From an uncultured Myxococcales bacterium (GTDB lineage: Bacteria; Myxococcota_A; Polyangia; Palsa-1104; JAEUJZ01), in contig CAYWPR010000010.1 in NCBI GenBank assembly GCA_964460115.1, positions 14,730 through 78,729 on the forward strand: a DNA stretch of 64,000 nt, in the 5' to 3' direction. This document shows, piece after piece, positions 8,873 to 51,027 of the stretch (its first letter is position 1; each line of letters begins with the position of its first letter). Under the pieces are notes generated by a model that made no database searches, was not told the origin of the DNA, and worked only from the letters and a program-made list of their open reading frames with translations. The translations under genes and the position numbers were made by a program.

Positions 8873-10861
8873 ATGGAGCGTCTGCCTAATACCCTTGGCA
8901 ACGTCGTCGAAATACAAGTTGTGTCGGGGGCCCGCTGTGGCGAACAGTTATGGTTCTTTGACGCTGAGCGCATTCGTCTGGGCCGAAACCCGGCCAATGA
9001 AGTGGTGCTGCCCGACAGCGGAGTGTCGCGCTTTCATGCCGAGCTACGTGCTTCCGGAGACGGCGATGGCTATGAACTAGGCGACAGCGGCAGCACGGCC
9101 GGAACATTTCTGGACCAAGCCGGCGTGGCCGAGCGTGTTCCTTTAGAGTCTTCGAAGCTGTTGTCGCCCGGAGTTTATGACGTACTTTTGGGCCAGGGCG
9201 GGCCCCATTGCCGCATTGGTGTAGGCATCAGCGTCCCCTTTGGGCGCTATCGATTGATCGCGCGACTGGGCGGCGGCGGAATGGCCGAAGTTTATTTGGC
9301 CCGTCAAACCGGCCTTGGCGGCTTCAATCGGCCTGTGGCGCTAAAACTGATACAGCCCGAGCTTTTTGACGTGGTCGATGCCAGCGCCATGTTTTTGGAC
9401 GAAGCGCGCATCGCCGCCGAGATCAACCATCACAACGTCGTAAAAATTTACGATGTCGGCGAGCACGACGGCGTCCTGTTTCTAACGATGGAGCACTTGC
9501 GCGGAATCACCCTGTCGCATTTGCGTAACAAGCTACGGCACGTCGGCAAGAAGATGCCGCCGGATTTGGTCGCAGCGCTGCTAAGCCAAGCTTGTGCCGG
9601 ACTTCATGCCACGCATAGCCTGCGCGACCTTGGCGGCCGGCTATTGCACGTCGTGCATCGCGATGTGTCGCCTTCTAATTTGATGTGCACCTCCGAAGGG
9701 CTGCTCAAAGTCATCGATTTCGGAGTGGCGCGCGCCGATACGCGGCTTGTGCAAAAGGATGAAGGTTTGCAAGGCAAGCCGGCGTATATGTCTCCGGAGC
9801 AGATTCAAGGGCGGTCGCTTGATGCGCGTTCCGATGTGTTTGCACTGGGCGTCGTACTGTATGAGCTGTGCTGCGATCGGCCGCTTTTTCAGCGCGATGA
9901 CCTGATGGCGACTTTTTATGCAGTCGTACGCGAAGATGTACCGCCGCTGCGCAGCTTTTGTCCGCAGGCCTCGGCGCAGTTAGAGGCGGCGGTGCATAAA
10001 GCCCTGGCCAAAGATCCGGCGCAGCGCTTTCAAAGTGCCGCGGAATTGGCGCTTGAGCTCGACAAAACCGTGCAAGAGGCAGGCGGGCGCTTTGCCAATA
10101 TCTCGGCGATTGCGCGTTTTTTGCAGGAACTAGACATCCATTTAAATGCCATCGTTCCGGTCTTGCTGAGCCGCGTTCCCAAACCGCTGTTGTCGCGTCG
10201 CGAGCCTGCCCGTCGTAACAGTTCCGTTTCCAAGCCGCTAGCGCGTCCGGCAGAAGTGGCGCCGCCGATCTCTACTGCGCAAGGGCCCGATTCGACCCTT
10301 GGTTTCGTCCCGGTGGCACCGACCGCGCTTTTGAGCGTGACGGTCCCGCTTCCCGGTCCCGAGCACACAGAGCGCCTACGCGGCCCCGCCGGGCATCATC
10401 TATCGATTTGCACGCTGTCTTTTCGCGCTCCGCGGCAACTTACCGCAATGCCTTTGCCGCTGCTTTTGGGCGCTGACCAGCCTTGGCTGCCGGCGCCCAT
10501 CGCGCTGACTGCGCTCGGCACCACATTGATGGTCGAGCTAGAGGAACATCCAGGCGGTCGCGATCGTCCAAGTCTTTATCACAATGCTTTTCTTCCGAAT
10601 ACTCGCTGCGAAAGCTTCACGCTGCAGCCGAGTACTAAGGCCGGCCATTTTGACGTAGGGCATCGCCGAACGACGGTACAAAGGATCGATTATGCAAGCA
10701 CGATTGCCGACTCGGCAGGCAATGGTAGGCTGCGACTGGTTCTGGCCGATTTGCGTGTGGAACTTGTCGGCAGCGTTTCGCTTTTGCGCCTGTGCGCGCT
10801 GCATACAAGCGATGCCGCGCACAAGATGACCTGCTTGATTTGTGTTTTGATTGAGCCCTAA
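8873..10861 (+). CDS. FHA-domain Ser/Thr protein kinase, apparently active (Lys, HRD and DFG present)
   Basis: An N-terminal FHA (LGRNPANEVVLPDSGVSRFHAEL) is followed by a kinase domain with GGGGMAEVYLA, VALKLI, HRDVSPSNLM, DFGVAR and MSPEQ. The ATG at 8873 is 3 nt after the activator stop. Confidence 0.85.
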   Translation: MERLPNTLGNVVEIQVVSGARCGEQLWFFDAERIRLGRNPANEVVLPDSGVSRFHAELRASGDGDGYELGDSGSTAGTFLDQAGVAERVPLESSKLLSPGVYDVLLGQGGPHCRIGVGISVPFGRYRLIARLGGGGMAEVYLARQTGLGGFNRPVALKLIQPELFDVVDASAMFLDEARIAAEINHHNVVKIYDVGEHDGVLFLTMEHLRGITLSHLRNKLRHVGKKMPPDLVAALLSQACAGLHATHSLRDLGGRLLHVVHRDVSPSNLMCTSEGLLKVIDFGVARADTRLVQKDEGLQGKPAYMSPEQIQGRSLDARSDVFALGVVLYELCCDRPLFQRDDLMATFYAVVREDVPPLRSFCPQASAQLEAAVHKALAKDPAQRFQSAAELALELDKTVQEAGGRFANISAIARFLQELDIHLNAIVPVLLSRVPKPLLSRREPARRNSSVSKPLARPAEVAPPISTAQGPDSTLGFVPVAPTALLSVTVPLPGPEHTERLRGPAGHHLSICTLSFRAPRQLTAMPLPLLLGADQPWLPAPIALTALGTTLMVELEEHPGGRDRPSLYHNAFLPNTRCESFTLQPSTKAGHFDVGHRRTTVQRIDYASTIADSAGNGRLRLVLADLRVELVGSVSLLRLCALHTSDAAHKMTCLICVLIEP

Positions 10862-12354: not shown

Positions 12355-14433
12355 GTGAGCAGAACTCGTGGTAAAGTAAGGAAGCCTGTACAGACCCGCA
12401 TGTCTCCGCCAGAGCGAAAGCGATGCTTCGAATGCGGCACCAGCTATCCTCCAGACGCCAATATGTGCGAGGAGGATCATGTCCTGCTGTGGCCAGACAC
12501 CATCGGCAATGTTTGGCGCATAGAAGGCGTTTTGGCGCCGCGGCTTGGCGGGGCGACCTGCGCCGCTTACCATGTGCACAGCGGTGCTCGCGTTGCCATT
12601 GACGTCGTGCGCGGACTGCCGGGGCCGGATCCGACCGCGCTAAAAACCTTGGCCCAAGAAGCCCATGCGCTGCGTCTTATCGACCATCCAAATGTCCTCA
12701 AGCTTCTCGAAGAGGGGGTGGATCGCGCAAGCCAGCGCGCGCCGCACAAGGCGAGCCAGGGATCGGCGATTCATTTTCTTGTGACCGAACTTGGGCCGGC
12801 ACGCCCGCTGCCGGACGTATTAGAAGAGTCGCAGCGCGCCCGCAGCTCGGATGGCATAGAAAATGCGCCGGCGGAATTTACCACGTCGGCGGCCCCCATG
12901 CCGCTTGCCCAGGTCATGCAGGTCGGGCGGCAATTGCTTAGCACTTTAGCCGCCGCACACAGGCTGGGGCTGGCCCATGGCGACCTGGGGCTAGGCCATC
13001 TTTACGTTCTTAGCGATGAAGATTCGATCTCTGAACTTGGTCCGACAAAGTCGATAAGACTGCGCAGCCTCAAAGCCTTTGGTCCTGGCGCCGCGTTGCA
13101 AAAGGCCATTCGCGACGATATCTATGAAACCGCCGCGCTTTTATATGAGCTTGCAGTTTCGCAGCCTCCGCCGCTGGCCGGCCGAGAGGGCAAAGTGGCG
13201 CTGAAATTGCCGGCGGAAATGGACGGGAAACTGGCCCAGATCATCCTGCGCGGCATCGGCGCCAGCGGTGGTAAGGGTTACGACAGCGTCGATGAAATGC
13301 TACAAGAATTTATCGTTGCGGCGCCGCCCCCGATTCAGGAGATAAGCGCCGCAGCGCTGGCCGCCCTGACGCGTACCACGCCGCAAGCACGCCATGGTTA
13401 TCCCTCAAATCCTTTGCTGACGACGATAGGCGGGCGCACAATCAGCGGCGGCGAAGGATTGCCGGGCACACCGCCGCCCTTGCCGCGGCTTAGCGGCCAG
13501 CACCCCGTGCTTCCGGCGCCGCCTTCGCTACTTAGCACGACCTTTACGGGCGAAATGCCGCAGCGCTCTCGGCTGTCCGGCGAGCTGCGCGAAGTATCGT
13601 TTCGCGATTTGCTGGAAGAAGAAAAGCGGCCCGAAGGTGAAGAAACTCTAGCGCGCTCGCGACGGCGGGTCTCGGCGTCTAGCATGAAACTGCCCGCCTT
13701 GAATTTGCCAGCCGAACACTTGCCGGACGCCGAGCGCCAATCTCCAAAAGCTTCTGCGCACTTTCATCCAGAAGGCGCCATGCCGCTGCCGCCGATCGCT
13801 CCCGGGGCGATTTCCAGCGGCGAACTGGCCTCGGTTGAGCCAACAGCGGATCTACATGCCTTGCCTGTAGACTTCTCGTCGGCCATCTCTGGCTCGCTTG
13901 GACTTGGCTTGGCGCCGCGAGTTAGCAAATCGGAAAGCTCTTTGCCTGCCGTGCCCGCGCAGCCGGCATTGCCTGGAAGTTCGCGCCGGTCCCCGGATCC
14001 GGCTCGCGCTGTGCAGCCAGCGAAAACCGCCTCACCCGCTAGACCCACACAACCCTTTGTTCTGGCTGCTCCTGAAAAGCGAATGCCGCGTGAAATCGAT
14101 CCTTTCGCCAGCACCGGCCGTTCGCCAATTCCCTCTGAAGTACTGGCCGTCTCGCGGCGTCTGCAAGCACAGCAGGGCGAAATGGTGCCGGTTCATCCCC
14201 CATTGGCCCCCCTTGCCTCCCTGCCAGCTTCGGAAGCCTGGCCGATTTCGGCACATCAGGCTGCGGCCACAGCGACAGGCGCTTCTATATTCAGCGAACG
14301 CACGCTTCCGCCGATAGTGCCTATAGTACCGATTGCTCCCCCTTCCCGTCGATCGCTGTGGCCGTTTTTGGTGGCTTCCCTCTTGGCGCTTTTTACCTTG
14401 CTCGGGCTCTTGTTTAGTCGCTGGACGTCGTGA
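12355..14433 (+). CDS. Membrane tail-anchored pseudokinase: N-terminal zinc-ribbon (CFECG...C..DH), degenerate protein-kinase-like domain, long Pro-rich linker and C-terminal TM helix
   Basis: The kinase-like fold has VAIDVV in place of VAIK, HGDLGLGHLY in place of HRDLKPEN and LKAFG in place of DFG. The C-terminal hydrophobic LWPFLVASLLALFTLLGLLF is a TM helix. The start may instead be the ATG at 12400. Confidence 0.6.
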   Translation: MSRTRGKVRKPVQTRMSPPERKRCFECGTSYPPDANMCEEDHVLLWPDTIGNVWRIEGVLAPRLGGATCAAYHVHSGARVAIDVVRGLPGPDPTALKTLAQEAHALRLIDHPNVLKLLEEGVDRASQRAPHKASQGSAIHFLVTELGPARPLPDVLEESQRARSSDGIENAPAEFTTSAAPMPLAQVMQVGRQLLSTLAAAHRLGLAHGDLGLGHLYVLSDEDSISELGPTKSIRLRSLKAFGPGAALQKAIRDDIYETAALLYELAVSQPPPLAGREGKVALKLPAEMDGKLAQIILRGIGASGGKGYDSVDEMLQEFIVAAPPPIQEISAAALAALTRTTPQARHGYPSNPLLTTIGGRTISGGEGLPGTPPPLPRLSGQHPVLPAPPSLLSTTFTGEMPQRSRLSGELREVSFRDLLEEEKRPEGEETLARSRRRVSASSMKLPALNLPAEHLPDAERQSPKASAHFHPEGAMPLPPIAPGAISSGELASVEPTADLHALPVDFSSAISGSLGLGLAPRVSKSESSLPAVPAQPALPGSSRRSPDPARAVQPAKTASPARPTQPFVLAAPEKRMPREIDPFASTGRSPIPSEVLAVSRRLQAQQGEMVPVHPPLAPLASLPASEAWPISAHQAAATATGASIFSERTLPPIVPIVPIAPPSRRSLWPFLVASLLALFTLLGLLFSRWTS

Positions 14434-14470: not shown

Positions 14471-14755
14471 TTAGCGACCGGCAGATCCTCCGGCGATGGC
14501 CGGAACAATCGAAACTTCGGCGTCTTTGGGCAGAGGCGTCTCGAGATTTTGCAAAAAGCGTACATCTTCTGCGCCGACAAAAATGTTGACGAAGCGCCGC
14601 ATCTGACCTTTTTCGTCAAGCAAGCGTTCGCCAAGGCCAGGATGTGCGGCGGCCAGGATGCTTATAAGCTCGCCCACAGTTGCCGCCTCTGCACGAATCA
14701 CGTCCTGCCCTTGCGTGAACTTGCGCAAAGGGGTGGGAATACGAACCGTCGCCAT
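14471..14755 (-). CDS. MoaD/CysO/ThiS-family sulfur-carrier (ubiquitin-like) protein with a 5-residue extension after the Gly-Gly (…AIAGG-SAGR)
   Basis: The sequence closely resembles CysO/MoaD type 2: TVRIPTPLR...ATVGELI..L...PGLGERLLDEKGQMRRFVNIFVGAEDVRFLQNLETPL.KDAEVSIVPAIAGG. Confidence 0.7.
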   Translation of the reverse strand: MATVRIPTPLRKFTQGQDVIRAEAATVGELISILAAAHPGLGERLLDEKGQMRRFVNIFVGAEDVRFLQNLETPLPKDAEVSIVPAIAGGSAGR

Positions 14756-14857: not shown

Positions 14858-17800
14858 ATGTTGCAAGGCTTGTCGGATGGGGCCAGGCAGCCAGCACGGC
14901 AGGGCCTGGCGACGCTTGTCGCGCTACACAAATCGTCGGTAAAGCGCCTGCGCTGCCTCGGTGGTGAAGGATCTTTCTCGGCGCTCGCCATCGCCCGGCT
15001 GGCTGAAACACTGCCGGCGTCCGCGCGACCTCTTATCGTCGTCGTGCCCGATGAGGCAGAAGCCCGCACGCTGCGCAAAGACATTCAAATGTTCATCGGC
15101 GCGGCCAACTCCACAAGCGATGGAGCCGCCATCCCCATCGAGCCGGTCATCGGCCTGCCCGATTTTGATACAAGTCCATGGGCCGATGTTTCGCCCGAGC
15201 GCAACGTCGTTTTGCGCCGCATGGGCGTCCTGTTTCGCCTGGCGCAGGGGCCCGCGCACGCCGGACAGGTGGTAGTGGCCTCGATAAATGCGCTGGCCCG
15301 TCGGGTCGTGCCGCGCGCCGCCTTAGATGACCTAGTCGACATCATTCGCGCGGAAGAGGAACAAGATCGCGATCGCCTGATTCAGCTTTTGCAGCGGGGT
15401 GGTTATACCCGAGCGCCAGTTTGCGAAGACCCGGGCACATTCGCAGTGCGCGGCGGCGTGCTCGATGTATTTGTGCCGCTGTATCACTTTCCGACGCGTA
15501 TCGATTTTTATGGGGATCTTATCGAATCTCTGCGGTTCTACGATCCGGCGACGCAGCGAACGCTGCGCAAAACCGATGAGATTTTCATCCATCCCGTGCG
15601 AGAAACGATTCTGACCCAGGGGCACCGTCTGCGCGAGCGGCTTTTGGCCGCCGCCGATCTGTCGGTGCACCCATCAAATCGCACCCGGCAAATTCAGGAT
15701 CAAATCGAAGCCGGCGAAGATTTTTTTGGCGCCGAGTCGTTGACCCCGGCATTTCACAGCCACATGGCCTCGATTGCCGAATACTTGCCGGCGCAATCGA
15801 CCTTCTATCTAAGCGAACCGCACCGTCTTTACGATGCCTTAAGCGATACCCTGGCCGAGGCCGCTATCGCCTATGACAAACGCTTGTCTGAACACCGGCT
15901 GGGCTTTCCACCAAGTGACTTCTATCTGTCGCGGGCAGAACTGGATGCCCTGCTAGTTAATGACGAGCATGGCGGCGCGATCATCGAAGCCGAGCCGCTC
16001 GTCATTGCTGAGACGCCAAGCGGCGCGCTGGCGGCGGCGCAAAATGACAAAGGCCTGCAGGATGAAATTCCGACCCTGCACTTTGCAGTCGAAAGTCATC
16101 GTGAGCTGGTTGCGGAAATTGCCCGCGCGCGCGCCGAAAAACATGCGCAATTGCTGATGCCGCTTGTGCGGCGGCTGCGCCATAACCAGAGCGAAGGCGT
16201 GCGCAGCGTCATCGTTAGCTCAAGTCTGCAGCATGCCGAACGCATGGAGGGGTTGCTAAAAGGGTACGGCCTACGGCCGGTGCTGCACCGCCCCGGCGTG
16301 ACCGCGCTAGTGGCCGAGCAATCGAGTGGCGAGACGCTGCACCGCTTCGATTTGCTCGATTCGGACCCGATACACTTTGGTCGCATCGAGTTGCGAGTCG
16401 GGCCGCTTTTGCGCGGCTTTGATCTGCCTCTCGATCGCGTCGCGCTGTACAGCGAAGCAGAGGTCTTCGGAGAAAAAGCGGCGCGCAAAGCTAACCGCGG
16501 TCCTAAAAAACCAGCTCTTGGCGATCTGAAGAACCTAGAGCCTGGGGCTTATGTCGTTCATCAGTTGCATGGCGTCGGTCGCTATAAAGGGCTGGCCAAG
16601 TTGCCTTTGCAAAAAGGCGGCGTCGCCATCGACTTTATGCATCTTGAATACCTGGGCGGCACGCTGTACTTGCCCGTTTGGCGCCTTGGTGAAGTGCAGC
16701 GCTACGTCGGCGCCGAAGGAACCGAGCCGCGCCTAGACCGGCTGGGCGGCGAGACCTGGGCCAAGACTCGCTCCAAGGTCGCGCGCGAGGTGCAAAAGAT
16801 TGCCGAGGAGCTGCTGCAGATTTACGCCCAGCGTCAAGCCCTGCCCGGACATAGCTTTCAGCTAGGCGGCGACGCTGAGCAAATGTTTCATGAATTCGAA
16901 GCGACCTTTCCCTTCGAAGAAACTCCGGATCAAGAGCGCGCCATCCAAGATGTGCTTGCGGACATGGAAACGGCGCGCCCCATGGATCGGCTGGTCTGCG
17001 GCGACGTCGGCTATGGCAAAACCGAAGTGGCGATCCGTGCGACGATGAAAGCGGCGCTTGGCGGCAAGCAGGTTGCGGTGCTGGCACCTACGACCGTGCT
17101 TGTCGAGCAGCATTATGCGACGTTTCGCGAGCGCATGAAGAGCATGCCGGTGGTTGTGGGAACTCTGTCGCGGTTTCGTTCGCGCAGTGAACAACTGCAA
17201 GTGCTAAAAGGACTGTCTGACGGACAGGTGGATGTGGTCATCGGCACCCACCGATTGCTATCGAGCGACGTGCGCTTTAAAGATCTAGGTCTTTTGGTGA
17301 TCGATGAAGAGCAACGCTTTGGCGTTGCGCACAAAGAGCGGCTAAAGAAGCTGCGCACTCAAGTAGATAGCCTGACGCTGACCGCCACGCCGATTCCGCG
17401 CACCCTGCATATGGCGCTTGCAGGCATGCGCGACCTGTCGATCATCACCACGGCCCCCGCGGATCGCTTGGCCATACGTACCATCGTAGCCCGTGAAACC
17501 GACGACTTGCTGCGCGAAGGAGTTCGGCGCGAGCTAAGTCGAGGCGGCCAAGTCTTTTTTGTGCACAACCGCGTCGAGACCATCGACAAATGGGCGCGGC
17601 GGCTGCGGGAACTTTTGCCCGAGGTGCGACTGCTTGTCGGCCATGGCCAGATGAGCCCCGAGGCGCTGGAACAAGTGATGCTGGACTTTGTCGAAGGCCG
17701 CGCCGATGTGCTGCTGTGTACGACGATCATCGAAAGCGGGCTGGACATTTCGCGCGCCAACACAATGTTTGTGGATCGCGCCGATACCTTCGGCCTGAGT

Positions 17801-18553
17801 CAGCTTTATCAGTTGCGCGGACGCATCGGCCGTTCGACGCAGCGCGCTTTTTGCTACCTGCTTTTGCCGCCCGGCGAAGCGATGACCGCTGAAGCCAAGC
17901 AGCGTCTGGCGGTTCTGCAGCGCTTTTCAGAGCTTGGCGCGGGGTTTCAAATCGCCAGTCACGATTTGGAAATTCGCGGCGCCGGCGATCTTTTGGGCAC
18001 GCGGCAATCGGGCAGCATCGCGCAAGTCGGATTTGAGCTTTACACCCGCATGCTGGAAGAAGCGGTTGCCGAGTTGCGCGGTCAGCCCATTATACGCCCC
18101 GCCGATCCGGATCTGACTTGCGATTTGCCCGGCTATATTCCTGACGAATATTTGCCCGATACGGGCCAACGGCTGGATTTTTATCGACGTTTGTCCGTGG
18201 CGGAAGATGAGGAAGAAATCGCCTCGGTCCTGGCCGAGCTGCGCGACCGCTATGGCAGTCCGCCCGATGAAGTAGCAACCCTGGGCGATATCATGGTGGT
18301 CAAGGCCTTAAGCCGGCGCCTGCACGCCGCAGCGGTCGAGCTGTCGCAAACTCGCTTGGCGCTGGCCTTGCGACCGACCACGCCGCTTAGTCCGGCACAA
18401 GTGGCCAAACTTGTGGACGGCAAACGTTCCCAGTGGCGCCTCAGTCCGGATCAGCGTTTGATGCGCCTATGGCAGGGCGACAAAGAACGCGAAGACCGTC
18501 TGGCCCTTGGCAAAGCCCTGCTGGCCGATCTGCTCAGCCAGTCTTCTACATAG
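14858..18553 (+). CDS. mfd: Transcription-repair coupling factor Mfd
   Basis: The protein is 1231 aa. It has UvrB-homology N-terminal domains and DEAD/helicase motifs (GDVGYGKTEVA, DEEQRFGV). The TRG motif and C-terminal domain are present. Confidence 0.95.
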   Translation: MLQGLSDGARQPARQGLATLVALHKSSVKRLRCLGGEGSFSALAIARLAETLPASARPLIVVVPDEAEARTLRKDIQMFIGAANSTSDGAAIPIEPVIGLPDFDTSPWADVSPERNVVLRRMGVLFRLAQGPAHAGQVVVASINALARRVVPRAALDDLVDIIRAEEEQDRDRLIQLLQRGGYTRAPVCEDPGTFAVRGGVLDVFVPLYHFPTRIDFYGDLIESLRFYDPATQRTLRKTDEIFIHPVRETILTQGHRLRERLLAAADLSVHPSNRTRQIQDQIEAGEDFFGAESLTPAFHSHMASIAEYLPAQSTFYLSEPHRLYDALSDTLAEAAIAYDKRLSEHRLGFPPSDFYLSRAELDALLVNDEHGGAIIEAEPLVIAETPSGALAAAQNDKGLQDEIPTLHFAVESHRELVAEIARARAEKHAQLLMPLVRRLRHNQSEGVRSVIVSSSLQHAERMEGLLKGYGLRPVLHRPGVTALVAEQSSGETLHRFDLLDSDPIHFGRIELRVGPLLRGFDLPLDRVALYSEAEVFGEKAARKANRGPKKPALGDLKNLEPGAYVVHQLHGVGRYKGLAKLPLQKGGVAIDFMHLEYLGGTLYLPVWRLGEVQRYVGAEGTEPRLDRLGGETWAKTRSKVAREVQKIAEELLQIYAQRQALPGHSFQLGGDAEQMFHEFEATFPFEETPDQERAIQDVLADMETARPMDRLVCGDVGYGKTEVAIRATMKAALGGKQVAVLAPTTVLVEQHYATFRERMKSMPVVVGTLSRFRSRSEQLQVLKGLSDGQVDVVIGTHRLLSSDVRFKDLGLLVIDEEQRFGVAHKERLKKLRTQVDSLTLTATPIPRTLHMALAGMRDLSIITTAPADRLAIRTIVARETDDLLREGVRRELSRGGQVFFVHNRVETIDKWARRLRELLPEVRLLVGHGQMSPEALEQVMLDFVEGRADVLLCTTIIESGLDISRANTMFVDRADTFGLSQLYQLRGRIGRSTQRAFCYLLLPPGEAMTAEAKQRLAVLQRFSELGAGFQIASHDLEIRGAGDLLGTRQSGSIAQVGFELYTRMLEEAVAELRGQPIIRPADPDLTCDLPGYIPDEYLPDTGQRLDFYRRLSVAEDEEEIASVLAELRDRYGSPPDEVATLGDIMVVKALSRRLHAAAVELSQTRLALALRPTTPLSPAQVAKLVDGKRSQWRLSPDQRLMRLWQGDKEREDRLALGKALLADLLSQSST

Positions 18554-28104: not shown

Positions 28105-29484
28105 ATGCAAACTCTCTCCCGTCTCTTTGGCATTGCTTTGCTTGGCACCATGCCGCTGCTTGGCTGTAATAGCCAGACACTTAGCAGCAACGGCGATGGA
28201 GGACCTGTTCCCGAGGGCGTCACATTTGGCTTCCCCGGCTGCAGAGATCTTGCTTGTAAGATCGCTTATAACTGTCCGACGACAATGAATAGCGGCAAAA
28301 CCACCGTTACCGGCGTCGTCAACATCCCCGCCGGCAATCTGCCGCTCTATGGCGCATCGGTATACGTGCCAAACAGCGCATTATCTGATTACGTAGATGG
28401 GCCGACGTGCGATCGTTGCTCCGAGCAGTCTTCAGGAAGCCCGGTCGCCATCACGACCACCGATGCCGCTGGACACTTCATCCTTGAGGGAGTCCCCACT
28501 GGCGAGAACATTCCGCTGGTGGTTCAGCTTGGCAAGTGGCGGCGCGAGCTTACTTTGACGACCAAAGTCGATGCATGTACAGATACCGTACTCGATGCAG
28601 AGAAGACGCGGCTGCCGCGCAATCAGGGGGAAGGACATCTTCCTAAGATTGCCATTGCCACCGGCGGACAAGACGCGCTACAGTGCATGGTCCGTCGGCT
28701 CGGCATCTCCGACTCCGAGTTCACTCCTGAAGGCGGCACAGGCCGCGTCAACCTTTTTGCGGGGCACGGAGGGACGTCTAAATATGTCGCAGGCATAAAT
28801 GGCGGCGCCACGCTCACCAGCGCCCCGACCTTCTGGGGCGCGCAGGCCAACCTGAACAAGTACGACGTCCTTCTTTACTCGTGCGATGGCCAGGAGGATA
28901 GTTTTTCGAGCAACACCACCGAGAAACCCGCGGCATCTCGGGCCCTGCTCGAGAGTTATCTGAACGCCGGTGGGCGTGCATTTCTATCGCACTGGCACCA
29001 CTACTGGGTCGAGTTCGGCTCGACGGCGTTTAAAGGCCTCATCAACTTTCAGCCGGCCGGCAATCCGCCAACCGACCACCTAAACGACATTGGTACCGGC
29101 ACCGCGGACATCGACATGAGCTTCGCCAAAGGTCAGGCCATGGCCAACTGGCTGCGCAATGTGCAGGGATCCAGCACACTCGGCAAGATTAACCTAACGG
29201 CGGTTCAGAACACCATCAAGTCCGCCAATGCCGGCACACAGACCTGGATACGACTGCCCGCCAATGACAATACGCAGTACGTAAGCTTCAACACGCCGGT
29301 CGGCGTTCCACCGGCCAACCAGTGCGGCCGCGCTGTCATTTCCGATCTGCACATCTCGGCCGGCGATAACGTCAGTGATCCCTTCCCGATGGGGTGCAAG
29401 TCGAACCCGCTGTCGCCGCAGGAAAAAGCCCTGATCTTCATGTTCTTCGACCTGGCAAGCTGCATCGAACAACCCGCCGGCTGA
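28105..29484 (+). CDS. Hypothetical secreted lipoprotein with an N-terminal carboxypeptidase-regulatory-like beta-sandwich region
   Basis: Signal peptide with lipobox LLGC. A TVTGVVNIPAGNLPLYGASVYV segment follows. Multiple Cys pairs are present. No catalytic motif was recognised. Confidence 0.55.
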   Translation: MQTLSRLFGIALLGTMPLLGCNSQTLSSNGDGGPVPEGVTFGFPGCRDLACKIAYNCPTTMNSGKTTVTGVVNIPAGNLPLYGASVYVPNSALSDYVDGPTCDRCSEQSSGSPVAITTTDAAGHFILEGVPTGENIPLVVQLGKWRRELTLTTKVDACTDTVLDAEKTRLPRNQGEGHLPKIAIATGGQDALQCMVRRLGISDSEFTPEGGTGRVNLFAGHGGTSKYVAGINGGATLTSAPTFWGAQANLNKYDVLLYSCDGQEDSFSSNTTEKPAASRALLESYLNAGGRAFLSHWHHYWVEFGSTAFKGLINFQPAGNPPTDHLNDIGTGTADIDMSFAKGQAMANWLRNVQGSSTLGKINLTAVQNTIKSANAGTQTWIRLPANDNTQYVSFNTPVGVPPANQCGRAVISDLHISAGDNVSDPFPMGCKSNPLSPQEKALIFMFFDLASCIEQPAG

Positions 29485-29501
29485 TCCAATCTTAGGAGCA
29501 A

Positions 29502-30680
29502 TCAGCAGCCAAAGCGCACCGCATAAATCGGCGGTAAGTTGTTCGCCACAGTCATAAAGCCCTCGCCGCCGTCCTCGCTTAGGTACAGATTGCCCGTCGT
29601 GCTGCCAAAGGCCAAGGTTCCTTCCTGATTGGCGAGGGCGTGGCGATAAATTACATCGTATGCGCAATCTTGGGGCAGGCCGCGGCGCAGGGTTCGCCAA
29701 GTCGCGCCGCCGTCCTCGGTGCGTGCCACGAATAGTCCGCCGTCTATAGCCATACGCTGCTGATCCGACCGACCAGGCACGACCCAGGCAGTGCGACCGC
29801 ATTTTGCGTCCACCGTCACCGGAAAACCAAAATGGACGCCCTGCGCCGGGGCGCTTACCTTACGCCAAGATTTTGCCGCATCCGCACTATAGAAAATGCC
29901 GACGTGGTTTTGTTGCCACAGATGGTCAGGATCGCCCTGGCATTGCTCGATGTAATGCGGATCGTGGCCCCACTCGGCCTCAGGCTCGGGCGTATGCTCC
30001 ATCGTCATGCCCTTGTTGGCGCTATGCCACGTCAGTCCGCCATCGAGTGTCTCGATAACACCAGCCGTCGATACGGCCACGAGCATTCGCTTGGGATTTC
30101 GCGGATCGATCACAATCGAGTGAATTCCGGGCGCAAAGTCGCCGCCCTCAGAAGCCGGCGTTCCAAACCATTTCGTCTCGCCTACGCCGTCGCCTTCAAA
30201 TAGGTTACCGCCACGCGACTCGTGGTTCCAAAGCGGCCGGTTCAGCTCGAATGAGGCCCCCGCGTCGTGGCTTACAAAAAGTCCGCCGGGAATGGTTCCG
30301 ACATATACGCGCCCCTCGAGACCAAAACCAATGACCCATAGTTTGGCCAGCGTCGCGGGTTTTGTCGAGATGCGCCAGCCGACTCCGAACTCGGCTGCGG
30401 CGTCTTCGTACATATCCTGGGCGATGTAGCGTGCTCGCTCGGGATATTTGATTTGTGCCGGAGCGTCGGCCCAAGTGGCGCCCGCGTCGTCCGAAATTGA
30501 CAGCTTCGCGCCCCAATGTCCATGGCCAAGCAGTGCCCAAAGGCGCCCGGTATAGGGATCCTGCGCAACGAAATTTACGCCAGCACCAGCGTGAGCAGCC
30601 AGCCGCGGGCGCCAGTGGCCGCTACACTTCTCAACGATGAAAGTGCCTTTGCGCGTGCCGACGAGAATACGAGACGTCAT
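29502..30680 (-). CDS. BNR/Asp-box repeat beta-propeller protein (sialidase / Ycf48-like fold)
   Basis: Five Asp-box-like repeats are present (SDDAGATW, SHDAGASF, TLDGGLTWH, TEDGGATWR, SEDGGEGF). The start ATG abuts the stop of the upstream MoaD-like gene (TAGATG) and is preceded by GGAGG. Confidence 0.7.
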   Translation of the reverse strand: MTSRILVGTRKGTFIVEKCSGHWRPRLAAHAGAGVNFVAQDPYTGRLWALLGHGHWGAKLSISDDAGATWADAPAQIKYPERARYIAQDMYEDAAAEFGVGWRISTKPATLAKLWVIGFGLEGRVYVGTIPGGLFVSHDAGASFELNRPLWNHESRGGNLFEGDGVGETKWFGTPASEGGDFAPGIHSIVIDPRNPKRMLVAVSTAGVIETLDGGLTWHSANKGMTMEHTPEPEAEWGHDPHYIEQCQGDPDHLWQQNHVGIFYSADAAKSWRKVSAPAQGVHFGFPVTVDAKCGRTAWVVPGRSDQQRMAIDGGLFVARTEDGGATWRTLRRGLPQDCAYDVIYRHALANQEGTLAFGSTTGNLYLSEDGGEGFMTVANNLPPIYAVRFGC

Positions 30681-30962
30681 CTAGGAACCTCCGCTCAATG
30701 CTTGAAGAATGTGGACATTGGCGCCGGCGGCGACCGCATCGGAAAGCTTGCGGCGATCGCGGATGAGTTCTTTGTTGATGAAGATGTTGACGTGCGTCCG
30801 CAGGCAGCCGCGTTCGTCGCAGATATAAAAGCCGATGCCCGGTGCTAGTCCATCGAGAGCCCGAATCACCTCACCCACCGTCGAAGCCTCGACCTCGATG
30901 GCTTTTCCATCAAGTTGCGGAAAAAAACTGAACAAATGACGGGTCAGGTGCACGGAGACCAT
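30681..30962 (-). CDS. MoaD/ThiS-family ubiquitin-like protein ending ...ALSGG-S (one residue beyond Gly-Gly)
   Basis: The sequence matches the ThiS/MoaD fold: EASTVGEVIRALDGLAPGIG...THVNIFINKELIRDRRKLSDAVAAGANVHILQALSGG. The ATG at 30962 is preferred over the longer ORF. Confidence 0.65.
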   Translation of the reverse strand: MVSVHLTRHLFSFFPQLDGKAIEVEASTVGEVIRALDGLAPGIGFYICDERGCLRTHVNIFINKELIRDRRKLSDAVAAGANVHILQALSGGS

Positions 30963-31031
30963 GTACGAATCGGTCACACATGCGTCGAAATCATGCAAGC
31001 AAAAGTGCCATTATTGAACGTCAGCCACTGC

Positions 31032-31898
31032 CTAATTCATCCAGCGCGGCTCTGCCGAGGCGCCTTTTTTGGGCGTGCTGGTTTTCCAGCCGCCGTCCAT
31101 GACGGTAAATGATGCGCGTCCGGAGCGTCGCAAAGTCCGTTGTAGTTTGCGGCGCCAGGTCGTCCAAAAGCCGCCGCCGTCGCCTGATCCTAGGCGCAGC
31201 ATGAAAAGCGTCATTCCCACCGCGCCAAGCTGCGCAACAAACTCTAGCCAGCGATGAAACCAAAGGCTTCCGACAAGCCCAAGTCCAACAAAAAAGTATG
31301 ACAGGCCGCGCCCCGAAACCGGCTCACCAAGGCCCCACATCCGCACTGGCAAGTTCCCATAAAAATGTGCGAAGGCCAAAAGCACGGCCAAAAATACCGG
31401 CTGACCGTCGAACAAAACCACTGGTTCCATGGCCCCAATTGGCAGCCAGGCCCAAAGATAGCCAACCACGGCAGCCGACACGGCGGCAGCCAGCGACGCT
31501 TCAGCCATCCAAAGCAGGAAACGCCGCGTTCCGACACGCTGCTCGATGGCGCTTCCCAGCGAAAACAAGAGCAGTCCCAAAAACAAAAGGGAAAGGAAGC
31601 TCGTCATGATAAGGGGCGCCGTAACAATCTGATAGGCCCGAAAGCCCAGGACCTGGGCCGGACGCAAGTATAAGTTGTTGGCAATCCACAGCTCGACGGG
31701 CGGCAATAGCGCCAATACATAGGTCGCTGCAAACAGCCCTAAAAGGGCTATCACTCCCGGCGTAAACCGCTGGCCTAGGCGTATTTCAACAAACCGCGCA
31801 GAGGATGAGGCAGACTTCATGCTAATAAGGTAACTCGTCGTGCATTTGCCCGCCATGCCGCTGCACGCATTCGCCGCCGCTTTTTGAAAGGCAAGCAC
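31032..31898 (-). CDS. Polytopic membrane protein, possibly of the rhomboid superfamily (may be inactive)
   Basis: Six to seven hydrophobic helices are present. A FSLGSAIE segment and an AHFYGN segment weakly resemble rhomboid Ser and His motifs. The start is uncertain. Confidence 0.4.
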   Translation of the reverse strand: MLAFQKAAANACSGMAGKCTTSYLISMKSASSSARFVEIRLGQRFTPGVIALLGLFAATYVLALLPPVELWIANNLYLRPAQVLGFRAYQIVTAPLIMTSFLSLLFLGLLLFSLGSAIEQRVGTRRFLLWMAEASLAAAVSAAVVGYLWAWLPIGAMEPVVLFDGQPVFLAVLLAFAHFYGNLPVRMWGLGEPVSGRGLSYFFVGLGLVGSLWFHRWLEFVAQLGAVGMTLFMLRLGSGDGGGFWTTWRRKLQRTLRRSGRASFTVMDGGWKTSTPKKGASAEPRWMN

Positions 31899-31908
31899 GA
31901 AGCGGCAT

Positions 31909-33087
31909 TTGCTGGTATTCTGCTACGGGGAGGAGAGTGGTATGGCACTCGCTGAACTATCTCAGCTACAGGTTCTGCTTAGCAAGGCCGACGGGCCCGA
32001 TGTGATCTTCCCGTGTATCCTGGCGGAAGGCGACAAGGCCGCGCAAAGCCAGGCGCTGGAACGCGAGTATCTACGCTTGACTCACATTGCCGATCCCGAA
32101 CGCTTTCGGGGCGATCCGCAAGCTCAAAGCACTGCAAGATGGGTCTTGACCCGGCTTTTTGAATTTCATCATGAAGCGGTTCTGGCCATCGGCGCCAGCG
32201 GCGATGAGGCCAGCGATGACGGGCTGACCTCCGGCCATTTTGCCGGTCTGCCGGCGGAAGCCTTATTTACCGTCACAACCGCCAAGGGAGTCTATCAGGC
32301 CGAGGCCCTTCTTGCCGAAGGAGATTTGTCAACCGTCTACCGAGGCCGCAAGCTACTAGTCACGCCAGATGAAACAGGAGCCGGCCGAGGGGTTGCAATC
32401 AAAGTTGCAGACGACAGCAGCAACAATGATCTTTTACAAAATGAAGTCCATAGTCTGCGGTTCCTAAATCGCGCAGCCACGCCGCAGCGCAAGCATCTAC
32501 CGGTTCTGGTTGACGAATTTCGGACGTCCGATGGCCGCTTTGGTACGGTCTTGCGGCTTATCAAAGGACATTCCTTTTCCGTCATTCATAAGCAGTACAC
32601 GCAGGGCGTTGACGGTCAGCATGCGGCGTGGATCCTGAAACGCTTGCTCAGCGTGCTTGCCCATGCCCATAGCCAAGGGGTCATACACGGCAACATCAAA
32701 CCGGAGCACATCATTGTACAGCCGCAGAATCACAATGTTGTGCTTCTGGACTGGAGCCATTCCATAAGGACCGCACAGCCTGCCGTTTTGAGCATTCCGG
32801 GAATCCTTTCGGACTACAGCGCGCCGGAAATAAGAGAAGAGCAATCGCCTACTGCGGCTTCTGATATTTATTCTGTAGGAAAATGCATGATCATGCTGCT
32901 TGGCGGAGACCTGCATTATGACAGCATTCCTTCCCACATTGATAAGCGGCTGACTTGTTTTCTGCAGACCTTTGTATGGCCAAATCCCCAAGAGCGCGCG
33001 CAAAATGCCGAGCAGTTGCATGAGAAACTGGTGCAGCTTCGTGAAGAAATCTATGGACCGCAGCAGTTCCTAGAATTTGGCATGTAA
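31909..33087 (+). CDS. Protein-kinase-like protein, predicted pseudokinase (HGN replaces HRD, DWS replaces DFG) with an N-terminal unknown domain
   Basis: Motifs present: VAIKVAD, VIHGNIKPEHII, LLDWSHS and YSAPEI. The catalytic Asp of HRD is replaced by Asn. Confidence 0.65.
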   Translation: MLVFCYGEESGMALAELSQLQVLLSKADGPDVIFPCILAEGDKAAQSQALEREYLRLTHIADPERFRGDPQAQSTARWVLTRLFEFHHEAVLAIGASGDEASDDGLTSGHFAGLPAEALFTVTTAKGVYQAEALLAEGDLSTVYRGRKLLVTPDETGAGRGVAIKVADDSSNNDLLQNEVHSLRFLNRAATPQRKHLPVLVDEFRTSDGRFGTVLRLIKGHSFSVIHKQYTQGVDGQHAAWILKRLLSVLAHAHSQGVIHGNIKPEHIIVQPQNHNVVLLDWSHSIRTAQPAVLSIPGILSDYSAPEIREEQSPTAASDIYSVGKCMIMLLGGDLHYDSIPSHIDKRLTCFLQTFVWPNPQERAQNAEQLHEKLVQLREEIYGPQQFLEFGM

Positions 33088-48947: not shown

Positions 48948-50429
48948 ATGCGGCTACGCCAATACGATGATCTAGATGCCCTCGCGCTGGCTGAACTCAT
49001 TGCCAAAAAGGAGCTATCGCCGCAAGAGGTGCTGGAAGCAGCCATCGAGCGCATTACGGAACGCAATCCGCGCCTCAACGCGGTCGTGCATACTTTGTTT
49101 GAACGCGCGCGAGCGCGGGTCGCTGACCTGCCCGATGGCCCTTTGCGTGGTGTGCCTTTTCTGCTCAAAGATTTGAAACTGCAGCTTGCCGGCACGCCGA
49201 CGACAGGCAGCACGCGCCTGGCCATGTCCAAGATTGCGACCCAAAGCAGCGTGCTCACCGAGCGATACGAAGCCGCCGGACTGCAGATTCTGGGCAAGAC
49301 CAATACTCCAGAGCTTGGCATCATGGGGGTTACTGAGCCGGCCGTTCGTGGTCCTTGCAAAAATCCCTGGAACTTGGCCCATACCTCGGGCGGCAGTTCC
49401 GGAGGCGCAGCCGCAGCAGTAGCAGCGCGCATGGTCCCCATTGCCCATGGCGGCGACGGCGGAGGCTCTATTCGCATTCCGGCCTCGGCCTGCGGTTTGT
49501 TTGGATTAAAACCCACCCGCGGTCGCGTGACGATGGCGCCTTTTGCCGGGGAAGGATGGGGCGGATTTGTGCAAGAGCACGTGCTAAGCCGCTCGGTGCG
49601 CGACAGCGCAGCGCTGCTTGACATTGCCGATCCGCCCACCCCGGGCGAGCCTTATGGAGTTCCGGCCAAAGCCCGACCGTGGCTGGAAGAAGTCGGACGA
49701 GATCCTGGAAAGCTGCGCATCGCCTTCAGCAAACAGCCTTTTTATAGCGGTCAAACCCATCCAGACTGTGCAGCCGCTGTAGATGATTCCATCAAGCTGC
49801 TTAGCAGCCTTGGCCACGAAGTGGTTGAAGCTCGTCCCGCATTTTCGCGACAAGACATGGTCGCTGCCTACTTTTTGACGGTGGCCGTCCACGTTGCGCG
49901 GACTGTGGAGCAAATCAGCCAAGAAGCCGGCAAAAAGACGCCCGATGCGGCCGACTTTGAAGCGGTGACTTATCTTTTGGCATGCATCGGCTGGAAAACC
50001 AGCGCCCCCAAACTGCTGGCCGCGCAGCAGCTTATGCAAAAAACCGCACGCGACGTCGCAGGCTTTTTTCAGCAGTACGATATGCTGCTGACGCCGACTC
50101 TGGCCCAGCCGCCTGTGCGCATTGGGCAACTTGAAATGACGCGCAGCGAGCTTTTGCAATTGGCGATACTGCGCACCCTGCCCCTTGGCAAGCTGCTCGA
50201 TCTGGCATTGCACAACATGGGCGGCGCCAAGCTGGCCTATACGCCCAACACCCAGCTATACAATCAGATTGGTCAGCCGGCGATGAGCGTGCCGCTTTTC
50301 ACAAACGCGCAAGGACTGCCCATCGGAGTGCAGTTTGGCGCCGGCTTTGGAGAGGAAGCGAAGCTATTTCGTTTGGCGGCGCAGCTTGAAGCCGCCCGAC
50401 CTTGGGCAACGCGCAAGCCCCCCCTCTAA
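48948..50429 (+). CDS. Amidase (amidase-signature family, GatA-like)
   Basis: The amidase signature GGSSGGAAAAVAARMVPIAHGGDGGGSIRIPASACGLFGLKPTRG is present with a Ser-cisSer-Lys context. Confidence 0.85.
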   Translation: MRLRQYDDLDALALAELIAKKELSPQEVLEAAIERITERNPRLNAVVHTLFERARARVADLPDGPLRGVPFLLKDLKLQLAGTPTTGSTRLAMSKIATQSSVLTERYEAAGLQILGKTNTPELGIMGVTEPAVRGPCKNPWNLAHTSGGSSGGAAAAVAARMVPIAHGGDGGGSIRIPASACGLFGLKPTRGRVTMAPFAGEGWGGFVQEHVLSRSVRDSAALLDIADPPTPGEPYGVPAKARPWLEEVGRDPGKLRIAFSKQPFYSGQTHPDCAAAVDDSIKLLSSLGHEVVEARPAFSRQDMVAAYFLTVAVHVARTVEQISQEAGKKTPDAADFEAVTYLLACIGWKTSAPKLLAAQQLMQKTARDVAGFFQQYDMLLTPTLAQPPVRIGQLEMTRSELLQLAILRTLPLGKLLDLALHNMGGAKLAYTPNTQLYNQIGQPAMSVPLFTNAQGLPIGVQFGAGFGEEAKLFRLAAQLEAARPWATRKPPL

Positions 50430-50466
50430 TTCACATTCACAGGTTGGTTACAGCCCCGGAGACATC

Positions 50467-51027
50467 GTGGGATACATCTTTCACCCCGAAAAAATTCACG
50501 AAATCAGCAAACGTGGCATCGGTCTGCCACATCGTCAGATGTGCCAAGCAATCGTCGATGGTCTATCGCAGGAATATCGAAATCACATCGATGAAAATCC
50601 GCGCTGGATGTTCAATATGGCGGCGGGCGCCACCGGCTGCATGGCGCTACTGCATTGCTCGCTGACCGAATACATCATGATCTTCGGTTCGGCCATCGGC
50701 ACCGAAGGATATTCCGGCCGCTATCACCTGGACATCTACGATTCGGTGGTGGCCGGTGAAATGTGGACTTGTACCGAGGCCCAATTGCACGAAAAGCAGG
50801 TACATAGTCCCGGAGAGCTTGCTCACCTGCCGCGCCGCAGCACCAAAGCTTATCGCATCATCGACGGAACTTGGATGGTCGAGTATGGCCGAGGCCTGAT
50901 TCCTACGGCGCTTCCAGTAGGACTGGCCGATGCGGCTTTTAGCGCCATGGATGCGCGAACCATTTGGAAAACGCTGGTCAGCTACGCCCGACTGGCGACG
51001 CGCGAACTGGCGCAGGGCAAGATTTGA
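50467..51027 (+). CDS. ERG2 / sigma-1 receptor family protein (bacterial homolog, no N-terminal TM). The GTG at 50467 follows a GGAGA RBS; the alternative start is the ATG at 50539.
   Basis: Strong block similarity to sigma-1R/ERG2: LLHCSLTEYIMIFGSAIGTEGYSGRY, WMVEYGRGLIPTALPVGLADAAFSAMDARTIWKTLVSYARL. Confidence 0.7.
   Translation: MGYIFHPEKIHEISKRGIGLPHRQMCQAIVDGLSQEYRNHIDENPRWMFNMAAGATGCMALLHCSLTEYIMIFGSAIGTEGYSGRYHLDIYDSVVAGEMWTCTEAQLHEKQVHSPGELAHLPRRSTKAYRIIDGTWMVEYGRGLIPTALPVGLADAAFSAMDARTIWKTLVSYARLATRELAQGKI

Follow-up and report, generated by a model that had tools for sequence, protein, structure and literature searches.

A 64,000-nucleotide stretch of contig CAYWPR010000010.1 (assembly GCA_964460115.1), from an uncultured Myxococcales bacterium, was analysed with a focus on two adjoining genes on its minus strand. 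The whole stretch is referred to as the window. The first gene (30962..30681, including the TAG stop) encodes a small protein of 93 residues, MVSVHLT...HILQALSGGS, which was assigned to the CysO-like members of the ThiS/MoaD family from its open reading frame (ORF), Pfam match, homologues and sequence profile. The ATG, and not a TTG at 30998, was taken as its start because the homologues begin at the same Met. The second gene (30680..29502) encodes a 392-residue protein assigned by AlphaFold, Foldseek, phmmer and Pfam to the 3b7f family of seven-bladed Asp-box (BNR) β-propellers and predicted to be cytoplasmic. The initial annotation of this DNA had recognised a 93-residue ThiS/MoaD protein ending QALSGG-S, which the ORF and Pfam analyses confirm, and a BNR propeller with five Asp-boxes. 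The propeller stands, but six Asp-box-like motifs were counted in it, at residues 63, 137, 211, 265, 321 and 368.

The junction of the two genes (30686..30678) reads TCC-TAG-ATG, which comprises an extra Ser codon, the stop codon of the small gene (30683..30681) and the start codon of the propeller gene (30680..30678), all in one frame. A Shine-Dalgarno-like GGAGG (30692..30688), made of the two terminal Gly codons, is located 7 nt before the propeller ATG. The TAGATG fusion of stop and start and the GGAGG inside the 3' end of the small gene are thereby found in the sequence as initially described. A GGAGG motif combined with a stop-to-ATG distance of 0–6 nt is present in most of 83 related loci. 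The two genes are co-transcribed and probably translationally coupled, so that the term 'co-translated' used initially was wrong. No promoter-like site was found in a scan of 29200–32100, and the terminator-like matches in this region were unconvincing.

The pairing of the two genes was examined in two clades of relatives. In the first, found via the propeller (61–88% identity), the small gene lies directly upstream in 79 of the 80 genome loci, the single exception being a contig end with only 150 bases of upstream sequence. These loci come from Sorangium, Polyangium, Byssovorax, Sandaracinus, Planctomycetota and Steroidobacter, and the best relatives belong to Myxococcota (Polyangia-type) genomes. 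The second clade, which includes 3b7f, has an identity of about 30–40%. The order is reversed there: the propeller gene comes first and is often overlapped by ATGA with the gene of an 86-residue ThiS-like protein. Among the metagenome loci of this clade, the small gene is directly downstream on the same strand in 72 of 80; of the eight exceptions, seven are truncated where their contig stops, which leaves 72 of 73 informative loci. The reversed order was also observed in loci of Cupriavidus, Entotheonellia and Alphaproteobacteria, and the gene of 3b7f itself (Reut_B4987) is adjoined by a ThiS-like gene whose product ends HILQALAGG. The pair further occurs in Ralstonia solanacearum, Burkholderia, C. 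metallidurans, Mitsuaria, Arthrobacter, a replicon of Pseudomonas aeruginosa (pZYPA1927, L184) and a plasmid of Chondrinema (Bacteroidota). In P. aeruginosa PAO1, the two genes may correspond to PA1355 and PA1356; PA1356 is described in one paper as a colonisation factor, apparently on the basis of annotation only. The pair spans at least five phyla and two gene orders, to which two natural fusions must be added. These, P0408 and P0457, are independent and consist of a ThiS domain, GG, a linker of 9–13 residues and the propeller. Judged from the compared loci, the adjacency is far beyond chance, and the expectation that the pair would be kept in relatives was borne out by the 79/80 and 72/80 loci. 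The pair very probably constitutes a functional unit.

The Gly-Gly-Ser end of the small protein had been presented as the lead feature. It is not a trait of the family. Homologues of the small protein number 540, and 116 of the best 120 end in LSGG, with three ending in GGS and one in GGC; the Gly-Gly end is likewise free in 80 of the 83 closely related loci. The window protein does not have a C-terminal Gly-Gly, though the family does. The sequence is GGAGGT-TAG/TGA-n(1-5)-ATG in the relatives and GGAGGT-TCC-TAG-ATG in the window, and the Ser is accounted for by a stop codon moved by one codon within the 7-nt spacer (GGAGGTTCCTAGATG in the window, GGAGGTTAGTGGATG in the related locus L001). 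By this sequence comparison, the extra Ser is a rare local variant. Longer extensions beyond Gly-Gly have 1–11 residues in six loci of the second clade and 30 residues in two metagenome-assembled genomes (MAGs), one of Myxococcota (L077) and one of Sandaracinus (L078). In these two, the extension (GDDEARSEEARGDDEGDGARRGSREGAR) follows GGS and is rich in Asp, Glu and Arg, and 84 nt separate the small gene from the propeller gene.

The Pfam ThiS model (PF02597) matches the small protein with 35.3 bits for a cut-off of 22.5, and the partner-linked small proteins of other clades with 27.7–39.9 bits. When the profile of the small protein was compared with solved structures, the best matches were two CysO chains (3dwg_C and 4n6e_B, E 1e-16, residues 2–92 aligned), followed by a Thermus MoaD-related protein and then SAMP1. 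By its profile, the small protein is closest to the CysO-type thiocarboxylate carriers (PDB 3dwg, 4n6e). The best NCBIfam match is SAMP1 (NF041918), with 32.4 bits, below the cut-off of 60, and TIGR01687 (moaD_arch) reaches 20 bits, below the cut-off of 49.5. Thus, among the ThiS, MoaD, CysO and SAMP profiles proposed as a check, ThiS and CysO match, but moaD_arch and SAMP1 remain under their cut-offs. Assignment as MoaD proper was rejected on the sub-cut-off moaD_arch score and the lack of a MoaE in the window, MoaE being near the pair in a single context among those examined. A SAMP1-type modifier was rejected as well, with a score under the equivalog cut-off and no E1 or JAB in the window or among conserved neighbours. 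In the AlphaFold model of the fusion homologue P0457, residues 1–86 form a β-β-α-β-β-β, β-grasp-like domain with a predicted local distance difference test score (pLDDT) of 77–94. Profile and model together indicate that the small protein belongs to the β-grasp ThiS/MoaD family, in agreement with the fold first proposed. As the pair is conserved in relatives and the β-grasp fold is supported, the coupling of the two genes is not incidental. The tail (I/V)xQALSGG is common to the small proteins of clades that are only about 35–44% identical, and is specific to this subfamily.

A second ThiS/MoaD-family gene is located 16 kb from the first (14755..14471, minus strand). Its product of 94 residues (Pfam ThiS, 43.7 bits) is 38% identical to the first small protein and ends IVPAIAGG-SAGR, with residues beyond Gly-Gly. 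The tail is of the usual PAIAGG type, unlike QALSGG. The presence of two carriers extended beyond Gly-Gly in one window suggests that the genome may hold a GG-specific processing peptidase. The second gene is solitary, between mfd (14858–18553, plus strand) and a 692-residue ORF (12355–14433, plus strand) with kinase-like motifs, a long Pro/Ser/Ala-rich C-terminal half and no Pfam match at E ≤ 0.01.

The propeller is matched by the Pfam models BNR (31.7 bits, cut-off 27) and Sortilin-Vps10 (35.2 bits, cut-off 33), and its AlphaFold model has a pLDDT of 88.7. The most similar solved structure is PDB 3b7f (phmmer E 1e-45; Foldseek E 7e-31, template-modelling score 0.80–0.85), a structural-genomics entry for Reut_B4987 (YP_299179.1) of Cupriavidus pinatubonensis JMP134. 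The 3b7f family was termed an 'uncharacterized family' in 2009, and the central tunnel of 3b7f was described as open and measuring 9 × 11 Å (PMC2716378). Conservation was analysed over 41 diverse relatives with a mean identity of 33%. Polar conservation outside the Asp-boxes is found at T9, K11, D41, W171, H187, H242, Q257, H259, R309 and R346. By the strand order of the AlphaFold model, all except D41 are in B-C or D-A loops, of which one face of a propeller is built. From this topology, we infer that a conserved Lys/His/Arg ring may occupy one face of the propeller. The sequence of the propeller shows no sign of an N-terminal signal peptide. The family also has members with additional regions. 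In P0414 (704 residues) and P0508, a Ser/Thr protein kinase domain is fused to a propeller of the same family, with the conserved Lys/His/Arg residues kept. The propeller of P0361 (499 residues), 61% identical to that of the window, carries a C-terminal tail of about 115 residues that is rich in Lys, Ala and Pro and histone H1-like.

Other propeller enzymes were considered. GH74 enzymes are the next-best structural matches after 3b7f by Foldseek; they consist of two tandem propellers (PMC2716378). A GH74 xyloglucanase was rejected for the window protein, which is a single propeller of 392 residues without signal peptide and whose alignments with GH74 cover one half at 12–18% identity. A sialidase (GH33, six-bladed) was rejected as well, since BNR_2 (PF13088) scores 18.2 bits, below its cut-off of 31.4, and the best structural match is the seven-bladed 3b7f. 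There is no sialidase among the top 50 structural matches. A Pfam match to Mo-co_dimer, with 16.9 bits for a cut-off of 22.7, was treated as chance.

The statement that no E1, JAMM, MoaE, ThiG or CysM partner lies near the pair holds for the window, as judged by tblastn, Pfam and eye. Searches by tblastn with the Escherichia coli MoaA to MoaE and MoeB sequences gave no match in the 64 kb; no ThiF, JAB, MoaE, ThiG or PALP domain was detected in the 25 window ORFs that were scanned with Pfam, the other large ORFs being judged by eye, and there is no CysM gene in the window. All-against-all clustering of the flanking ORFs in 83 and 85 loci revealed no third conserved gene. Among 148 non-redundant representatives of the immediate neighbours, each Pfam family is found at most twice, and neither E1 nor JAB is found among conserved neighbours. 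One group of loci shares synteny with parAB and atp genes, which looks taxon-specific. It is not unusual for E1 and JAMM genes to be missing from the neighbourhood, since mycobacterial MoeZR, which is encoded apart from CysO and MoaD, serves both (PMC3227635). Neither protein is matched by the PADLOC defence-system models, and no homologue was found in 50,697 phage records. A ubiquitin-like conjugation or defence operon (Bil, type II CBASS) was rejected on these two results and on the absence of E1, E2 and JAB neighbours.

Some individual neighbourhoods are of interest. On the Chondrinema litorale plasmid (NZ_CP111049.1, 2494–7080; L096), the pair has genes for a cysteine desulfurase, SufU and MoaE beside it, and XdhC is encoded on the other strand. 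In no other context examined do genes of sulfur mobilisation or the molybdenum cofactor (Moco) adjoin the pair. Genes for YciI-family proteins and a sigma factor of the extracytoplasmic function (ECF) type adjoin it in P. aeruginosa pZYPA1927, in Entotheonellia (L089 and L090) and in an alphaproteobacterial MAG (L178). The sigma factor contains DUF6596 in the two MAG loci, and thioredoxin-family genes are near the pair in these three lineages. AhpC or AhpCF genes are near the pair in Mitsuaria, Cupriavidus and one metagenome locus. A loose redox or sulfur theme runs through these neighbours (AhpC, thioredoxin, glutathione S-transferase, cysteine desulfurase, YciI with ECF sigma factor). It is anecdotal, and a link with redox stress is possible.

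Two further regions of the window are remote from the pair. A tail-tube domain like that of phage T4 gp19 (E 1.7e-31) is present in the 400-residue product of the gene at 4770–5972 (minus strand), which is beside large unassigned ORFs at 6069–10861 (plus strand). From its sequence, this region may belong to a contractile injection system or represent the remnant of a prophage. The product of the gene at 50335–51027 (plus strand) strongly matches the ERG2/sigma-1 receptor family (E 3e-54), a family of sterol isomerases of the eukaryotic type. This gene is flanked by an amidase gene and by an upstream-facing ORF that looks by eye like a carbamoyltransferase.

The arrangement of the pair resembles that of MoaD-MoaE. 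A β-grasp carrier ending in GG is encoded directly upstream of its partner with a spacer of 0–6 nt (1 nt in the case of E. coli moaD and moaE), the gene of the E1 lies elsewhere, and carrier and partner are occasionally fused with GG at the joint, as in Mycobacterium tuberculosis MoaX and Deinococcus radiodurans MoaD-MoaE. Fused MoaD-MoaE is active only after cleavage at GG, which is carried out by a JAMM peptidase in Deinococcus (PMC4326299, PMC8832034). Unlike MoaD-MoaE, the pair described here has a seven-bladed Asp-box propeller and not a MoaE fold as the partner, the carrier tail is QALSGG, the MoaD models are under cut-off and no Moco genes are near the pair of the window. The same β-grasp family and GG end are found in SAMP1/SAMP2, TtuB and Urm1, which are dual sulfur carriers and protein modifiers, and the conjugation of SAMP1 is JAMM-reversible (PMC4443979). 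The window protein differs from SAMP1 in its score (32 for a cut-off of 60) and in having no accompanying E1 or JAMM. The locus of 3b7f is alike in that a homologous seven-bladed Asp-box propeller has a ThiS-like neighbour gene, although the propeller gene comes first there and the proteins are about 28–40% identical.

In the CysO systems, the carrier passes its thiocarboxylate tail to a partner enzyme whose fold is unrelated, and a single type of carrier supplies several partners. The solved structures nearest to the small protein are those of CysO-CysM of M. tuberculosis (3dwg) and of CysO with BexX, a 2-thiosugar synthase of Amycolatopsis (4n6e). In these, CysO works with a pyridoxal phosphate enzyme or a ThiG-like TIM barrel, both of known substrate, whereas the partner here is a propeller; also unlike in the CysO systems, no JAMM (Mec+) or E1 gene is beside the pair of the window. 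On the side of the propeller, the Asp-box fold is shared with the Vps10 domain of sortilin and with Ycf48 (Foldseek E 1e-8 to 1e-9), with marginal sequence similarity (E about 2e-3). Sortilin and Ycf48 bind a peptide tail on or in the propeller without catalysis, and the GG tail may, by analogy, be recognised in a similar way. Sortilin is an extracellular protein with a ten-bladed propeller, Ycf48 functions in photosystem II assembly, and neither has a ubiquitin-like partner, unlike the propeller studied here.

The initial suggestion of a sulfur-transfer or ubiquitin-like pair is a fair reading, and the conserved pairing of the two genes, as compared across genomes, points to an undescribed partner for the ThiS/MoaD carrier family. 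By analogy with the carriers above, the pair may be an autonomous two-gene module consisting of a CysO/MoaD-type sulfur carrier and a cytoplasmic 3b7f-family propeller, a proposal held with somewhat less than even confidence as regards the following sulfur-transfer mechanism. The two proteins would bind each other in a stoichiometric complex, as do MoaD and MoaE or CysO and CysM. An E1 of the MoeB/MoeZ type, its gene being at another site in the genome, would adenylate and then thiocarboxylate the tail of the carrier. The flexible Gly-Gly tail would be offered to the conserved Lys/His/Arg-lined face or to the central tunnel of the propeller, which would be the acceptor-side enzyme, using the thiocarboxylate on a probably common substrate. 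In the window copy, removal of the Ser would be required, of the kind that JAMM peptidases perform on other extended or fused carriers; failing that, the copy may be impaired. A carrier-partner complex is favoured because of the moaD-moaE-like arrangement, the fusions at GG and the precedent of an E1 acting in trans. It is a tentative and rather doubtful further step to regard the 3b7f-family propeller as a new class of partner enzyme for ubiquitin-fold carriers, either a thiocarboxylate-dependent sulfurtransferase or another enzyme acting on the Gly-Gly terminus.

Several observations weigh against the sulfur-transfer module. The propeller family, over the 41 relatives, has no conserved Cys, and no cofactor motif was recognised. 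We know of no sulfurtransferase with a propeller fold. In the model of the P0457 fusion, the GG tail (residues 87–91) has a pLDDT below 50 and the predicted template-modelling score is only 0.81, and no docked tail is therefore predicted. The few family members with residues beyond GG imply that a processing peptidase is needed or that the function is independent of a free C-terminus. Pairing is not universal in the wider propeller family, since four copies, about 32–38% identical to the queries, have no ThiS gene within 5–6 kb (Rhodobacter L092, Marivivens L093 and the Streptomyces plasmids L095 and L186). The kinase-propeller fusion P0414 would be more in keeping with a sensor or binding module than with an enzyme.

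The last point leads to the main rival, in which the propeller is non-catalytic and acts as a receptor or adaptor for the ubiquitin-like tail. The pair would then be regulatory, sensing or chaperone-like, for example by reading the charged or conjugated state of the carrier. This is possible, though not probable. Propellers with Asp-boxes that bind peptide tails are among the structural neighbours (sortilin with neurotensin, 4po7; Ycf48 with a D1 peptide, 5ojp), all the conserved residues are kept in P0414, and a receptor would fit both the lack of a conserved Cys or recognisable cofactor motif and the lack of a conserved metabolic neighbour. However, the small protein is nearest to true thiocarboxylate carriers, the standard two-gene form has no output domain, and a near-invariant His/Arg/Lys/Gln ring across relatives of 33% identity is more typical of catalysis or of precise ligand chemistry.

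It is improbable that the propeller is instead a processing or deconjugating hydrolase, cutting after Gly-Gly to free the carrier from fusions, extensions or targets. Such an activity would suit the P0408 and P0457 fusions, in which GG is followed by a linker and the propeller, and the variants with 1–30 extra residues beyond GG, including that of the window, by analogy with the JAMM cleavage of MoaD-MoaE fusions (PMC8832034, PMC4326299). No protease-like motif or fold was found in the propeller, however, the top structural matches are all propellers, and a dedicated peptidase beside every copy would be superfluous as more than 90% of the family already end in free GG. That the small protein is a housekeeping MoaD for Moco synthesis, or another carrier, with a glycoside hydrolase or sialidase as chance neighbour or accessory, is very unlikely and largely refuted: the public annotations ('MoaD/ThiS family protein' with 'exo-alpha-sialidase' or 'glycosyl hydrolase') and the Chondrinema plasmid pair beside cysteine desulfurase, SufU, MoaE and XdhC speak for it, but MoaE is absent from the window and does not recur among the 148 neighbour representatives, the MoaD_arch and SAMP1 models are under cut-off, the propeller is single and without signal peptide where GH74 has two in tandem, BNR_2 scores 18 bits against 31, and the adjacency outlasts a reversal of gene order and is also seen as fusions.

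In the literature searched, neither a paper on the pair nor a function for it came up, and no propeller, BNR or sialidase is named as a partner in a 2006 review of ubiquitin-like systems of prokaryotes. The pair is one of sulfur carrier and partner with an unprecedented partner fold. To our knowledge, every known carrier partner (MoaE, ThiG, CysM, BexX, TtuA and others) has defined a pathway. Ubiquitin-fold sulfur carriers link sulfur metabolism to the origin of ubiquitin signalling. The propeller has thousands of homologues in at least five phyla, the pair is present in tractable organisms and pathogens (P. aeruginosa, Ralstonia, Cupriavidus), and one component has a crystal structure. Solving the role of the pair would give a function to a large family that is now mis-annotated as 'sialidase' or 'glycosyl hydrolase', would explain the strict one-to-one linkage of carrier and propeller, and may uncover a new chemistry, of sulfur or of the ubiquitin-like kind, that is carried out on a propeller. 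If the propeller is indeed a partner enzyme, the two genes would represent a self-contained two-protein system across many phyla, including P. aeruginosa, Ralstonia, Burkholderia and the myxobacteria.

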